In this document: positions 21,452 through 28,566 of the stretch, in pieces | Position numbering within the stretch: the stretch's first letter is position 1 | Layout of the letters: every line of letters begins with the position of its first letter | Origin: Nitrospinaceae bacterium | GTDB taxonomy: Bacteria; Nitrospinota; Nitrospinia; Nitrospinales; VA-1 | Assembly: GCA_029937655.1 (NCBI GenBank) | Contig: JAPYPK010000003.1 | Location: forward strand, 1 to 38,602 | Direction of reading: 5' to 3' | DNA: 38,602 nt | Position numbers and translations under genes: made by a program | Notes under the pieces: generated by a model | Databases searched by the model: none | Seen by the model: the letters and a program-made list of their open reading frames with translations, nothing else | Told to the model about the DNA's origin: nothing

Positions 21452-22780
21452 TTATCCTGATTTTTGATATTCTCGTAGATAAGAAAGTCTCGCCGGGATT
21501 TCCCCTTTCTCGCAGTAGTTATGCTTTGCAAGTAGTTTAATATCATCAACAACTCTTTTGTCGCCCTCAAAGAATATAGTCTGATACCCTTTATCAGCAA
21601 CAAGCCCACCAACTTGCAAAAGGCTCATAACCGACTTGGCATTAAATTTTTTCTCATCAACAATCACAAACAAATCCAGATCTTCGTACTTCCTAGCAAT
21701 AATAGATACAAGAGTTGATGGGCGAGCGTGAAAACCTAATGGTTTAGGAACAGGCAACTCCACTTTCACCACAATAGAAAAGCATTTCAATATTTCATCT
21801 GCCAGATTATTACCTTCATTGATAAAGTATTGACTATAAAAAAAACCGTAATTAACGATTTTGTCCAAAAGCACATTTTTATTAACTATCATAGAAATAC
21901 GTTTCCTATTCTCTCCAGGTCGGATTTCATCCTCATGACGCTCATAAAAATGCACCAACCATAAAGATACTTCAAGAAGATGCAAGGGCATTGACACATA
22001 ACCACGCAATACTTTTAACTCCTGATGTTCAGCCTCAAGCTTTGTATTTTTAACATATGTATCAAAATCCGATTGGGCATTATGAATTAAATTTTTGTGA
22101 AGACGGGCTCGATTTTCATTATATTTCTGCAAAACGGATAGCTTGAGTTCATTAATATCATCTACTCGAGAAATCTTTGAATCATTCATTAATTTCGAAA
22201 TATGTTTAATTTTATCGCATACTTCAATGACACGTTCTTTTTCGTCTTTCACTTCATCCTCGGCAACATTGCGCGGCAACCTTTTATAGGATTCAATATC
22301 AGAAAATTCAATCTGAATATCACTATCAATAGACATATTCAAACTATTTGATTCGGTATCAGCATATAACTCCTGAAGCAGGTTGAGGATAGACTGGTTA
22401 AGAAAAAACAGCACACCTACAGACTCTTTCTTAAATTCATTTTCTTTACTACTAGATTCTCTCAGATTGTAATAAGGGTATCGATCTAATATATGGCGAG
22501 TAAAAAAAGCTGCAATGGATAAGTTTCGTATTGATGCAAGACACTCAACAAAGAAACTCCATTTTTTATTTTCTCTTGCTCCATATTGATCCATAAAATT
22601 TTCTAAAGACTCGGATTCTTGAATAAGGTTCGAATAAAATTTTCTTGAGATATCTTTTTTCTCTTTGTTACGGCGCTTAAAAAGAAAGAGCACATTAAAA
22701 AATTGTTTACACGGGACTTCAGCCAGCGCAAGAAAATCTTTCTCGGATATAATTTGGGTTAACGATTTAGGTTCAGCCAT
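21452..22780 (-). CDS. Large protein with a C-terminal HPr domain
   Basis: GFHARPS and NAKSVMSLL in the last ~100 aa. The ~335-aa N-terminal region is not recognised. GGAG SD upstream. Confidence 0.85.
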   Translation of the reverse strand: MAEPKSLTQIISEKDFLALAEVPCKQFFNVLFLFKRRNKEKKDISRKFYSNLIQESESLENFMDQYGARENKKWSFFVECLASIRNLSIAAFFTRHILDRYPYYNLRESSSKENEFKKESVGVLFFLNQSILNLLQELYADTESNSLNMSIDSDIQIEFSDIESYKRLPRNVAEDEVKDEKERVIEVCDKIKHISKLMNDSKISRVDDINELKLSVLQKYNENRARLHKNLIHNAQSDFDTYVKNTKLEAEHQELKVLRGYVSMPLHLLEVSLWLVHFYERHEDEIRPGENRKRISMIVNKNVLLDKIVNYGFFYSQYFINEGNNLADEILKCFSIVVKVELPVPKPLGFHARPSTLVSIIARKYEDLDLFVIVDEKKFNAKSVMSLLQVGGLVADKGYQTIFFEGDKRVVDDIKLLAKHNYCEKGEIPARLSYLREYQKSG

Positions 22781-22869: not shown

Positions 22870-23409
22870 TCAAATCAAAGATTTGGAAATTATAGAAGCG
22901 GGAAGATATTTTTTCCAGATTTCCAAATGAGAGGTTGGGCCTGTTGGGATGTTAAAAAAAGGCCAATAAGAACCTGGCTTAGATGGTTTCGTGAGTAGTT
23001 GCATTCCTTTTTCGGAAGGTGTTTGATTACCTTTTTTTAAATTACACGGTTTACAGGCAACTACTACATTAATCCAATTAGATTTGCCGCCACGTGATTT
23101 TGGGAGCACATGATCAACAGTCAACGAATTATTAATTGTACCGCAATACTGACAAGTAAAGTTATCCCGACGTAAAATATTTTTCTTACTAAAAGAGATC
23201 CCCTTCCGTTTGGACCGTTTTACAATATTAAGAACACGAATTACTGCTGGGAGGTTAAATGTTGTTGTTGGAGTTCGGATCACATAACCATCACTTTCAA
23301 TAAATTCAGCTCGCTCATTAAAAACCATAATAATTGCGCGTTTTGCACTACAAAACTGAAGTGGTTCATAAGAATAGTTTAGAACCAAGCTTTTCACTGA
23401 ATTTAGCAT
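22870..23409 (-). CDS. HNH endonuclease
   Basis: LVLNYSYEPL, RRDNFTCQYCG, TVDHVLPKSRGG, ACKPCNLKKG. Confidence 0.93.
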   Translation of the reverse strand: MLNSVKSLVLNYSYEPLQFCSAKRAIIMVFNERAEFIESDGYVIRTPTTTFNLPAVIRVLNIVKRSKRKGISFSKKNILRRDNFTCQYCGTINNSLTVDHVLPKSRGGKSNWINVVVACKPCNLKKGNQTPSEKGMQLLTKPSKPGSYWPFFNIPTGPTSHLEIWKKYLPASIISKSLI

Positions 23410-25786: not shown

Positions 25787-26734
25787 TTGATGAATCAACA
25801 AAGTATTAGTAAAACTGCAGTACTAGACGGAGTCACTCTAACTTTAAGTAAACCAGACACAACTAAACCTGAATGGATTGGTCAAAGTGAAGTTTTAAAG
25901 CAAGTCTTAGCGTGCTGGATGGTTATATCAGATAAGGACCTCCCATTATCTCCTAGAATCATTGGTATGCCCGGAATCGGGAAAACCACTTTAGGAATGG
26001 TTGCAGCTTTAGAAAGAAAACAACCACTTTATATATATCAATGCACAAGTGATACACGACCAGAAGATTTAATTGTCACTCCTGTTTTGGCTGAATCAGG
26101 GAAAATTTCTTACCACGCATCACCATTAGTGACAGCAATGATTAGCGGAGGAATCTGCATACTGGATGAAGGAAATCGAATGAACGAAAAAAGCTGGGCT
26201 TCTCTAGCTCCTCTTCTTGATCACAGGCGCTATGTTGAGTCGATCATTGCCGGACTTAGGATAAAAGCCCACAATGATTTTCGTGCTTGTGTCACGATGA
26301 ATCATGATGAGTCAACATTTGAAATTCCCGATTACATATTATCAAGACTTCAACCTACCTTGTCATTGAATATGCCTAATACTGAAGATGAGATGGCCAT
26401 CTTAAAATATCACCTTCCATTTGCTGAAGAAGAATTACTCGAAATGACCGTTAACTTCTTACAAAAGTCTCATCAACTAGACCTTGAATTCTCTCCCAGG
26501 GACGGTTTACATATATTGCAATACGCGATGAAAAGGTTGATCCAAGACAAAGATCATCCAATAGCAAAAGATATGATTTGGCAAGAATCCATTCAAAAGG
26601 TTCTTGGGGACGACGCACTAGATTTAGATGTAATGGCAGAGAAGAAAAATCGCGCCTTAGGTGGAGCACAATTACCGCAAGGACTGGGTGATTTTTTTTT
26701 CGATGAAGATAGCCCAATTCATCCTGATCGATAA
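25787..26734 (+). CDS. MoxR-type AAA+ ATPase
   Basis: Walker A GMPGIGKT, Walker B ILDEGNRM, sensor I VTMN, Arg finger LSRL, sensor II FSPRD. The start may be ATG at 25790. Confidence 0.9.
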
Positions 26735-26739
26735 CAATA

Positions 26740-28566
26740 ATGGGTATCTTTTATCTCAGTAAAAAAATTCGATTTTTACCAGTAATACATGGCAGTGCCA
26801 GTTTCACTCGTATTATAAGAGACCGCTTATTATCATCTCCAACTGACTGTTTAGCAGTAGGCCTTCCTCCAGAGTTTCAAACAACGGTGAATGAGGGGAT
26901 CAATCACCTGCCCTTAATAACTCTGTGCTCTCAGAAAGAATCATCGGGTTCCTATAATTATGTCCCTATAGATCCTTGCCAACCCGTTATTATGGGCCTC
27001 CGCATCGCTTCGCAAGAAGGAATCCCTAGAAAGTTCATAGATTATAGTTGTGATGACTATGAACCAAGAAAAATAAACTTCCCTGACTCATACGCCTTAA
27101 GGCATATGTCTTATGAAAAGTTTTGCGCCACTCTTTTACTTTCCATTAAACGCCCTAAAGCTGACACGCTTCATGACAAAAGAGCACGGTGGATGGGATA
27201 TCAGCTTCATCAGCTAGAAATGGATTTTAGGAATATAACTGTCATCTGTTCGATTCTAGACTGGCCCTGGATAAAAGAAGCTTATGATGACAGAAAACCA
27301 TACGATAAAATATTTTCATCTTTCAACAATCCTAAAATATATGGGGTTGAAAAAGAAACACTCTTTTTTGCACTTGCGGAATTTCCTTACATAACTTATC
27401 TCAATGAGGTATATCGGCAACAAATAAAATCTGACAAAGAAGTTGTGGTTGATGGAATTAAAGAAATTCTAATAAAAGCTCGAGATATCTTCACTAAAAA
27501 ACATAAACTACGATTTCACAATCTCACATCACAATCTTTTCAAATATACCTACAGTACGTAAGAAATTTAACATTAATAGAAAGCCGCCTAACACCTGAT
27601 CTGTATACTTTAATAACAACTGCAAAACAATTCAGTGGCGACCCTTTCGCAATTGCTGTTCTTGAAGCGGCCAGAGCGTATCCTTTTCAAGACCTTAAAC
27701 ATACTAATCTCGAACCGTTAGCACTTGGAATAGATAAAGCCATAGACAGTGAAAATAACGCTATTAACATGAAAAATCGCCTATCAGAAAATCAAACAGA
27801 ATGGCGTGAAATCAACCTAAAACCAGAACCTGGCATAAAAAAACAAACTCAATGGAAACACAATTGGAATCCATATGGCCAATGCTCCTGGCCACCAGAA
27901 GATGATAAAATAGAAAGCTTTAATACTCATGTTCGAGAACAATCTAAATTACTTTTGAGCACTGACCTCGCAAGGTCCGAGAAGTTTACTTCCTCCACAA
28001 AAGACGGTGTAGATATGAGAGAAACACTTCGTCATTGGCACGAAGGCGATATCTACGTTAAAGAAATACCCCCCTCACGGGGACGTGTCGAAATCGTTGT
28101 TTTTATTTTTGACACAGAACCTAATCAAAATAAATATCAATGGTGTCAAACTTGGTATGCCGAACATAATGAAGAGTCAACATTATGTTTTTTTGCAACA
28201 AATTACATGGATGATATGATCGGTCCTGGAGTGGGTCGTGCTACATATGGCGGATGCATGATGATCTATCCACCTAGACCAATACCTGACATCTGGAAAG
28301 ACCCTAGAATTCATGTAGGAAAAACTTTAGAAGAAAAATTATTAGAAGCAGCTTTTTTTCATTCGCAAGAAAAACATATAACAGTGGTCACACCATGCCT
28401 CCCAAAGTCAAACTGGCGAAAACTTTCTCGAAAGTATCACAAAAGTATTATCCACATTCCTTTGAAACGTTTCTCTAATCAAACCATCGAAAAAGTTCGA
28501 AGATTTCATGTCCTCAATGGAAAACAAATTAGATCTTTTGCAAATCATTTTATTCAAGATTTATAG
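26740..28566 (+). CDS. Conserved hypothetical protein, probable MoxR partner
   Basis: 608-aa ORF starting 5 nt after the ATPase stop. Motif resemblance to YehM and YehP (see findings). Confidence 0.85.
   Translation: MGIFYLSKKIRFLPVIHGSASFTRIIRDRLLSSPTDCLAVGLPPEFQTTVNEGINHLPLITLCSQKESSGSYNYVPIDPCQPVIMGLRIASQEGIPRKFIDYSCDDYEPRKINFPDSYALRHMSYEKFCATLLLSIKRPKADTLHDKRARWMGYQLHQLEMDFRNITVICSILDWPWIKEAYDDRKPYDKIFSSFNNPKIYGVEKETLFFALAEFPYITYLNEVYRQQIKSDKEVVVDGIKEILIKARDIFTKKHKLRFHNLTSQSFQIYLQYVRNLTLIESRLTPDLYTLITTAKQFSGDPFAIAVLEAARAYPFQDLKHTNLEPLALGIDKAIDSENNAINMKNRLSENQTEWREINLKPEPGIKKQTQWKHNWNPYGQCSWPPEDDKIESFNTHVREQSKLLLSTDLARSEKFTSSTKDGVDMRETLRHWHEGDIYVKEIPPSRGRVEIVVFIFDTEPNQNKYQWCQTWYAEHNEESTLCFFATNYMDDMIGPGVGRATYGGCMMIYPPRPIPDIWKDPRIHVGKTLEEKLLEAAFFHSQEKHITVVTPCLPKSNWRKLSRKYHKSIIHIPLKRFSNQTIEKVRRFHVLNGKQIRSFANHFIQDL

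Follow-up and report, generated by a model that had tools for sequence, protein, structure and literature searches.

The stretch of DNA considered here (the window) comprises 38,602 nucleotides (nt) of contig JAPYPK010000003.1 from a Nitrospinaceae bacterium, and the subject of this analysis is a pair of genes on its forward strand, the first of which encodes an AAA+ ATPase and the second a 608-residue protein, referred to below as the partner. The two open reading frames (ORFs), 25787-26734 and 26740-28566, lie 5 nt apart, as an original prediction made from the sequence alone had described, with the ATPase stop codon TAA (26732-26734) followed by CAATA and then by the ATG of the partner. That prediction went on to propose that the partner is a fusion of counterparts of the E. 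coli proteins YehM and YehP, and that its C-terminal half is a degenerate von Willebrand factor A (vWA) domain. The analysis retains the two-gene module with a dedicated partner that has no vWA domain, but not the view of that partner as a degenerate-vWA adaptor; the pair is, on balance, probably a vWA-independent AAA+ remodelling module whose dedicated partner has three domains. The positions of the features discussed are collected in Table 1.

Table 1. Features of the ATPase-partner gene pair, with positions numbered from the first nucleotide of the window
Feature	Position	Strand	Basis
AAA+ ATPase gene, 315 residues, AAA_5 / CbbQ-NorQ-midasin kind	25787..26734	+	ORF, listed TTG start
Walker A, GMPGIGKT, residues 60-67	25964..25987	+	invariant G60, P62, G63, G65, K66, T67 (45 sequences)
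Walker B, D127-E128	26165..26170	+	invariant (45 sequences)
Segment after sensor 1, residues 175-195, including presumed arginine finger R187	26309..26371	+	predicted partner contact
Conserved ATPase C-terminal tail, residues 296-314	26672..26728	+	predicted to lie on partner
Spacer between ATPase and partner, CAATA, 5 nt	26735..26739	+	sequence
Partner gene, 608 residues	26740..28566	+	ORF, ATG start
N-terminal TIKI/TraB/ChaN-like domain, residues 1-190	26740..27309	+	degenerate site, fold search
Middle helical domain, residues 229-346	27424..27777	+	model
Partner helices 260-308, predicted ATPase docking site	27517-27663	+	complex model
C-terminal alpha/beta domain, residues 376-608	27865..28563	+	model; conservation
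DGVDMRETLRHWHEGDIYVKE...VEIVVFIFD-TEPN, residues 421-462 (claimed pre-vWA motif and first strand)	28000..28125	+	sequence

The evidence that the two genes belong together comes from a genome scan for the partner, which gave at least 595 confirmed relatives and from which 80 loci were kept, and from a search with a degenerate DNA pattern, which supplied a further 80 metagenome loci. The kept genome loci belong to the Nitrospinota, Nitrospirota, Latescibacterota, Planctomycetota (including Singulisphaera acidiphila DSM 18658), Gemmatimonadota and Tectomicrobia. The sequence relatives that carry names set the source organism among the Nitrospinota, near Nitromaritima. Linkage was counted over those loci in which 1000 nt or more precede the partner, namely 65 from genomes and 45 from metagenomes. 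The ATPase gene lies directly upstream of the partner in 55 of the 65 genome loci, and in six more, each labelled Planctomycetota, Planctomycetaceae, Singulisphaera or Isosphaeraceae, it is found on the same strand at a distance of 689-3451 nt upstream; it adjoins the partner in 37 of the 45 metagenome loci. Because the genes are neighbours in so large a share of both sets, their pairing is far above chance, and the co-conservation on which the original prediction depended is borne out. Across the phyla named above the ATPase is 61-96% identical, and across the 80 loci the partner is 45-91% identical over its whole length. Of 120 Nitrospinota genomes 92 have the partner, as do 49 of the 57 that are of high quality and 25 of 30 genera, mostly with one match per genome, and its homologues (E<=0.001, where E is the expectation value) fall into at least 1180 clusters at 50% identity. 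Contigs from RNA libraries (metatranscriptomes) that are 95-99% alike cover both genes, and the junction between the genes is spanned in three of four runs, from three studies.

The assignment of the ATPase to a branch of the AAA+ proteins is straightforward. It matches the Pfam family AAA_5 with an E of 7.6e-18 and 65.3 bits (cut-off 22), whereas its match to AAA_3, the family of MoxR proper, reaches 25.2 bits and is under the cut-off of 27; the closest solved chains are those of midasin (E 3e-12), CbbQ (5c3c, 9.3e-10) and NorQ (9qh4, 2e-6). The sequence thus places the ATPase in the MoxR class in the broad sense, within the AAA_5 branch of CbbQ-, NorQ-, GvpN- and midasin-like proteins rather than in MoxR proper, and the “MoxR ATPase” of the original prediction holds for an intact AAA_5 protein of the broad class but not for the narrower family. 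Comparison with YehL, the corresponding E. coli ATPase, gives a BLASTP E of 1 and an hhalign value of 8.7%, and the protein is of the CbbQ/NorQ/midasin kind rather than YehL-like. In an alignment of 45 sequences G60, P62, G63, G65, K66, T67, D127-E128, N172, R187 and R238 are invariant, and the enzyme is intact, retaining both Walker motifs as well as sensor 1 and the presumed arginine finger. Residues 175-195 are termed the post-sensor-1 region here on the strength of their position behind N172. The same alignment reveals a C-terminal tail (LGDFFF..D.P.HPD) in which F305 is invariant and the conservation of D302, F304, P310 and P313 is 90% or higher. The true start of the ATPase is probably the ATG at 25790, one codon past the listed start, because this ATG directly follows the TTG (window 25787-25792) and lies behind a GGGGG stretch.

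For the partner itself no family of Pfam, NCBIfam or PADLOC scores over the cut-off, and its analysis was based on a family alignment of 104 sequences with identities down to 24%. The AlphaFold (AF2) model generated from this alignment has a mean predicted local distance difference test (pLDDT) of 93.9 and a predicted template modelling score (pTM) of 0.85; an earlier model, generated from 18 sequences, had a pLDDT of 51.3 and was discarded. Sequence searches of the PDB with the partner family profiles gave no hits with the first alignment and two noise hits (E 0.58 and 0.91) with the second, and a Foldseek search of the PDB with the model gave no matches at E<=0.001, the weak rows being HopBA1 and scattered RNase H-like domains. 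Further weak family matches, to Ribonuclease_T2 (under the cut-off in 10 of 18 family members) and, in NCBIfam, to GrdX and GvpN (both far under theirs), were taken as chance. One distant member of the family, an 806-residue protein (P0168), carries a C-terminal domain resembling the Mor transcription activator (E 3.9e-4, below the cut-off).

The N-terminal part of the partner is homologous to YehM, as the original prediction had recognized by eye. When the 104-sequence profile is compared with E. coli YehM, hhalign returns 94.4%, and with a profile of 28 YehM family sequences it returns 95.6% (E 1.3e-8), aligning residues 9-295 with YehM 3-321 over 274 columns. This is the single hit, and since it ends at residue 295 of the query and 321 of YehM, the homology does not extend over the full length of the two proteins; hhalign detects no relation between the C-terminal 310 or so residues of the partner and the C-terminal 440 or so of YehM. 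The Pfam family of YehM, DUF5682 (PF18934, cut-off 26 bits), does not match the partner of the window; in 2 of 18 close relatives its best E is 0.024, and among 71 distant relatives it appears for 11, three of which exceed the cut-off, always within profile positions 1-317 of 727. Five proteins from E. coli assemblies (P0276, P0394, P0396, P0404 and P0392), each a cluster of one member, combine DUF5682 with a vWA or an AAA_5 domain in one ORF; since the yehM and yehP genes of K-12 share an overlap of 8 nt, the combinations seem to be products of frameshifts or of assembly and not natural fusions.

The fold searches, which cover only partner residues 1-191 and 229-346 well, are headed for residues 1-190 by structures of the TIKI superfamily. 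The matches, each with the three values listed for it, are the Tetrahymena complex IV subunit 7w5z_E (10.2, 4.2, 161), ChaN 2g5g (8.3, 4.0, 142), HopBA1 5t09 (7.9, 3.2, 132), EreC 6xcq (7.2, 4.3, 145) and PMT 2ebf (6.7, 4.1, 140). In the available part of one source, PMT, HopBA1, Bcr135 and ChaN are described as TIKI-superfamily folds, with a set of two histidines and two glutamates as the shared catalytic motif (PMC6254334). Judging from the model, residues 1-190 of the partner have the alpha/beta fold of the TIKI, TraB, ChaN and erythromycin esterase proteins, which agrees with the TIKI/ChaN-like fold that had been proposed for this half.

The catalytic motif of that fold has fared differently in different parts of the family. 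Among the 104 sequences the consensus residues H17, E41, E149 and H174 occur in 90, 75, 63 and 72 members respectively, and all four occur together in 59, but the partner of the window has H17, G41, A149 and D174 and so does not possess the two-histidine, two-glutamate set; the substitution of putative catalytic residues claimed in the original prediction is therefore borne out. The loss is general in the close subfamily, in which all 70 proteins (from 69 loci and the window, in at least five phyla) are without E41, E149 and H174, and in which D174 is invariant. Many other patterns at the key positions are found among the family representatives, and the TIKI motif has been lost in many members of the family. 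Because three of the four consensus residues are gone, the TIKI-like domain of this lineage most probably has no catalytic function and acts as a scaffold or in binding. A second degenerate pattern, PEDRHASL at eight key positions, is with its variants the commonest among the 80 metagenome loci (L106-L185; examples are L118, L120 and L130), and the ATPases paired with partners of this pattern are without the conserved C-terminal tail.

If the ATPase and the partner are modelled together, then the complex prediction scores 0.77, while the best of three controls scores 0.01, with both alignments used. Of 157 solved complexes 116 score as high as 0.77, as do 2 of 215 mismatched pairs, counts which are rough when applied to custom alignments. 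Agreement between the runs extends to 37% or more of the contacts, and the pLDDT of the partner is at least 81. On the ATPase side the confident contacts involve residues 38-54, 175-195 and, in the C-terminal tail, 283-314; those of the partner involve helices 260-308, residues 328-362 and the C-terminal domain patches 495-497 and 578-604. The post-sensor-1 residues placed in the interface by the model (175-179, 182, 185-186, 189-193 and 195) are mostly invariant in the alignment of 45 sequences, and the interface residues of the tail are 296-305, 309-311 and 313-314. The tail occurs only together with the partner subtype of the window and one other pattern, being present in 9 loci and absent from 37. 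The modelling supports the view that the two proteins bind, with the middle helical domain of the partner and the C-terminal tail of the ATPase as the predicted means of contact.

The C-terminal domain is the most conserved part of the partner and the core of its family. It is 55-94% identical across the 80 loci, and its mean column conservation is 0.52, compared with 0.40 for the N-terminal domain. A signature of 23 residues (S383, P386, E387, D388, E392, F416, S419, D422, G423, T429, R431, E475, E479, S480, T487, G495, P496, G497, G504, G505, P511, H590 and R598) is identical in 60 of the 104 representatives, which are otherwise 24-48% identical, and within it S383, E387, D388, E392, S419, D422, T429, R431, E475, E479, S480, H590 and R598 form an invariant polar set. 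An ESM Atlas search with residues 376-608 gave no usable match among named clusters, the only ones searched.

The surroundings of the gene pair are far less uniform than the pair itself, since the comparison of neighbours at the loci found no third gene that is conserved across phyla. Genes for MurJ, a HAD protein, a flavin adenine dinucleotide (FAD) oxidase, an HNH protein and an HPr-domain protein are common neighbours at the Nitrospinota loci only, and there the synteny is stable. In the clustering of neighbouring ORFs, clusters c2, c6 and c14 consist of antisense or alternate-frame ORFs from high-GC loci and were disregarded as artefacts, and an upstream neighbour resembling sirohaem synthase was dropped as a functional clue, as it occurs in just 6 of the 80 loci. 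The HPr-domain protein of the window (21452-22780, reverse strand) has 442 residues, and its sole Pfam match is the HPr domain at residues 341-391, near the C-terminus; the long N-terminal part has no match, and the protein as such keeps its synteny in 19 Nitrospinota loci. A 179-residue HNH endonuclease (22870-23409, reverse strand) holds its position in 20 Nitrospinota loci, an unusual stability for an HNH gene. In one Planctomycetota locus an IS200-like transposase gene stands between the ATPase and the partner (L049:2861-3412), and in a metagenome locus (L166:521-4843, reverse strand) a partner homologue lies inside a stop-free frame of 1441 residues, with starts uncalled and no separate ATPase upstream; the frame may represent a fusion, or mere read-through in GC-rich DNA.

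The original prediction had also noted that the window contains no canonical vWA gene, and this holds for the whole of its contig: searches of the entire assembly with VWA_2 (PF13519), VWA (PF00092) and VWA_CoxE (PF05762) matched other contigs only, namely C6, C122 and C43, and never that of the window (C10). On C6 (C6:861-5833; genome G000, loci L083-L085 and L090) an ordinary MoxR-type ATPase is followed by three vWA-domain ORFs, and C122 carries a further pair of vWA ORFs. The presence of the MoxR-vWA operon on C6 of the same genome fits a module that does not borrow a vWA protein, but it is not proof.

The question of whether the partner contains a vWA domain of its own bears directly on the proposal that it is a YehM-YehP fusion, in which the C-terminal half would be a degenerate vWA domain acting as an adaptor independently of the metal ion-dependent adhesion site (MIDAS). 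The sequence strings quoted in support of this proposal are all present in the partner, the N-terminal half is YehM-like, and there is a real local resemblance to YehP just before the vWA domain, where hhalign aligns residues 390-442 with YehP 143-201 (8.5%, E 0.004) around LxHWH..G.xYxxE; in addition, the C-terminal domain is of alpha/beta type and ends, in the model, in alternating helix-strand units, and the fold search of this domain is weak. When E. coli YehP is replaced by a profile of 26 YehP family sequences, however, the value drops to 2.5% (E 0.019), the HWH is found to be unconserved in the profile, and the alignment stops before the vWA domain and never enters it. (VWA_CoxE is reported in 9 of 120 genomes of the phylum at E<=1e-5, too few and too weak for a profile, and the YehP alignment was used instead.) The vWA models of Pfam match neither the partner nor its 71 distant relatives, and the partner ORF is likewise unmatched in the searches of the whole assembly with the three vWA models. 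Behind the strand, 1 of the 104 relatives has a DxSxS-like motif and the window has D-T-E-P-N, so that nothing suggests a recently decayed MIDAS. The vWA fold begins with strand 1, helix 1 and strands 2-3 and continues with alternating helix and strand, but in the model four more strands (468-472, 481-486, 493-495 and 498-509) separate the VEIVV strand (452-456) from the first helix, a predicted order that does not seem to fit a vWA domain. Nor is there a vWA chain among the fold-search rows listed, although these searches barely covered residues 376-608 and were dominated by the N-terminal domain. Given the weak YehP match, the lack of vWA model hits and of DxSxS, the strand order and the unrelated back half of YehM, the fusion is unsupported, and neither the sequence nor the model favours a YehP-like degenerate vWA domain in the C-terminal half; the proposal is accordingly rated highly unlikely.

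If the two genes were mere operon neighbours whose products form no complex, then the partner could be a stand-alone enzyme with its C-terminal domain as the catalyst. The invariant polar set of that domain would suit an enzyme, and there are loci without an adjacent ATPase, since in 4 of the 65 genome loci no ATPase is found within the locus and in 8 of the 45 metagenome loci none is found upstream. The adjacency nevertheless persists through at least six phyla in which every other neighbour varies, the complex prediction stands far above its controls, and the ATPase tail co-varies with the partner subtype, and this explanation is judged unlikely. The least probable alternative is an anti-phage or conflict system in which an AAA_5 ATPase controls a TIKI-fold hydrolase effector. 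It can appeal to the inclusion of McrB in AAA_5 and to the non-vWA partner of McrBC, as given in the available part of PMC13036017, to the action of TIKI-fold domains as proteases and esterases, including toxin effectors, in the available part of PMC6254334, to the 59 representatives which retain all four consensus residues, and to the IS200-like gene and varied neighbours of some Planctomycetota loci. On the other hand, PADLOC returns no match for the partner and for the ATPase only IetA at E 0.04, the partner is present, mostly as one match, in the great majority of the high-quality Nitrospinota genomes (49 of 57), the synteny with MurJ, HAD, FAD oxidase and HNH genes is stable across that phylum, the conservation of the ATPase across phyla is unlike that of fast-evolving defence genes, and the putative hydrolase site is lost in the whole close subfamily. 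The near-core distribution, the stable context and the very high conservation speak for a housekeeping function, which by analogy with NorQD and CbbQO could be the maturation of an enzyme or the loading of a cofactor, and against defence.

The reading that is favoured here, a vWA-independent AAA+ remodelling module of two genes, may be set out as follows. An ATPase of the CbbQ/NorQ type, presumably a hexamer like its relatives, would work with one dedicated partner of 608 residues, which would fill the place held by a vWA protein in NorQ-NorD, CbbQ-CbbO and RavA-ViaA. The TIKI-fold N-terminal domain would serve in this lineage as a non-catalytic scaffold or binding domain, the helical middle domain would dock the N-terminal helix, the post-sensor-1 segment and the aromatic-acidic C-terminal tail of the ATPase, and the C-terminal domain would be the working end, providing a catalytic or metal- or ligand-binding site or else a surface that binds the client. 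By analogy with NorQD and CbbQO, we infer that ATP hydrolysis would act through the partner on a client, most likely so that a housekeeping protein matures or receives its cofactor. Several considerations weigh against this reading, and each of its functional steps is an analogy. The link between the genes, while strong, is not absolute, because of the genome and metagenome loci without an upstream ATPase cited above. The RNA contigs are compatible with co-transcription, but RNA libraries may contain DNA, and a single transcript is unproven. The complex was modelled as a 1:1 assembly and not as a hexamer, which cannot reveal the contact of a finger with the pore, and its score expresses the confidence of the model rather than a measured quantity. 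The catalytic assignment of the histidines and glutamates comes from the family consensus and from motif matches to DUF5682, DUF5694 and TraB, with no superposed active site. The limited coverage of the C-terminal domain by the fold searches also belongs here, as this domain may yet be a strongly derived vWA or have some other known fold.

A more ambitious extension, which is possible but distinctly more doubtful, is that the module represents a vWA-independent branch of the MoxR/CbbQ class, its three-domain partner standing in for the vWA adaptor, in which the C-terminal domain, with its invariant acidic, His and Arg residues, is a new catalytic or metal-handling fold through which the ATPase matures a core enzyme, the TIKI site being ancestral and shed by many lineages. 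If this is true, then the enzyme would belong to the core of the Nitrospinota, which oxidise nitrite, and of several further phyla. The literature searched yielded no paper on DUF5682, on MoxR together with Tiki, or on this family, subscription journals being outside the coverage. MoxR-class AAA+ ATPases are generally described as acting through vWA partners, according to the available part of PMC13036017. The family described here has a different conserved partner architecture, which extends over at least 1180 clusters at 50% identity and at least six phyla and is near-core in marine nitrite oxidisers. It leads to predictions that can be tested: that helices 260-308 are the docking interface, that the ATPase tail has a role, that the invariant polar residues of the C-terminal domain form a site, and that the TIKI site is dispensable in many lineages.

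Among the known systems closest to the pair in the window is YehL-YehM of the uncharacterised E. coli locus yehLMPQ, in which the gene of an AAA+ ATPase likewise lies directly upstream of that of a large protein, and the present family offers a handle on systems of this type. The first 320 or so residues of YehM, which are homologous to residues 9-295 of the partner, span the TIKI-like domain and the start of the predicted docking region. The YehM family retains the motifs RHHSP, IEGP, REAMMA and CGGYHAP, whereas the partner of the window has lost three of these four; yehLMPQ also encodes the vWA protein YehP and the SWIM protein YehQ, neither of which is found in the module of the window, and YehL, as shown by the comparison above, is not close to the ATPase.

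Other known systems share one or another feature with the pair. McrB-McrC resembles it in joining an ATPase of the AAA_5 class to a partner that lacks a vWA domain (in the available part of PMC13036017), but in the searches run McrC has no sequence or fold relation to the partner of the window, which has no nuclease domain, and the distribution of the present family is housekeeping-like. PMT is, in the available part of PMC6254334, a member of the TIKI fold without the two-histidine, two-glutamate motif or the corresponding activity, and the partner of the window, which keeps only H17, is similar in this respect; it differs from the TIKI superfamily in that its Tiki domain comes with two additional domains and is linked to an ATPase. 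Two systems have an ATPase of the same AAA_5 kind with a single dedicated partner gene adjoining it: NorQ-NorD, which carries out metal insertion into nitric oxide reductase, and CbbQ-CbbO, which activates Rubisco. NorD and CbbO are vWA partners, while the partner of the window has neither a vWA domain nor a MIDAS nor a demonstrated pore finger. In NorQD, according to the available part of PMC13036017, it is the C-terminus of NorD that touches the loop after sensor 1, and the partner described here is predicted by the model to make contact with its ATPase at the same place.

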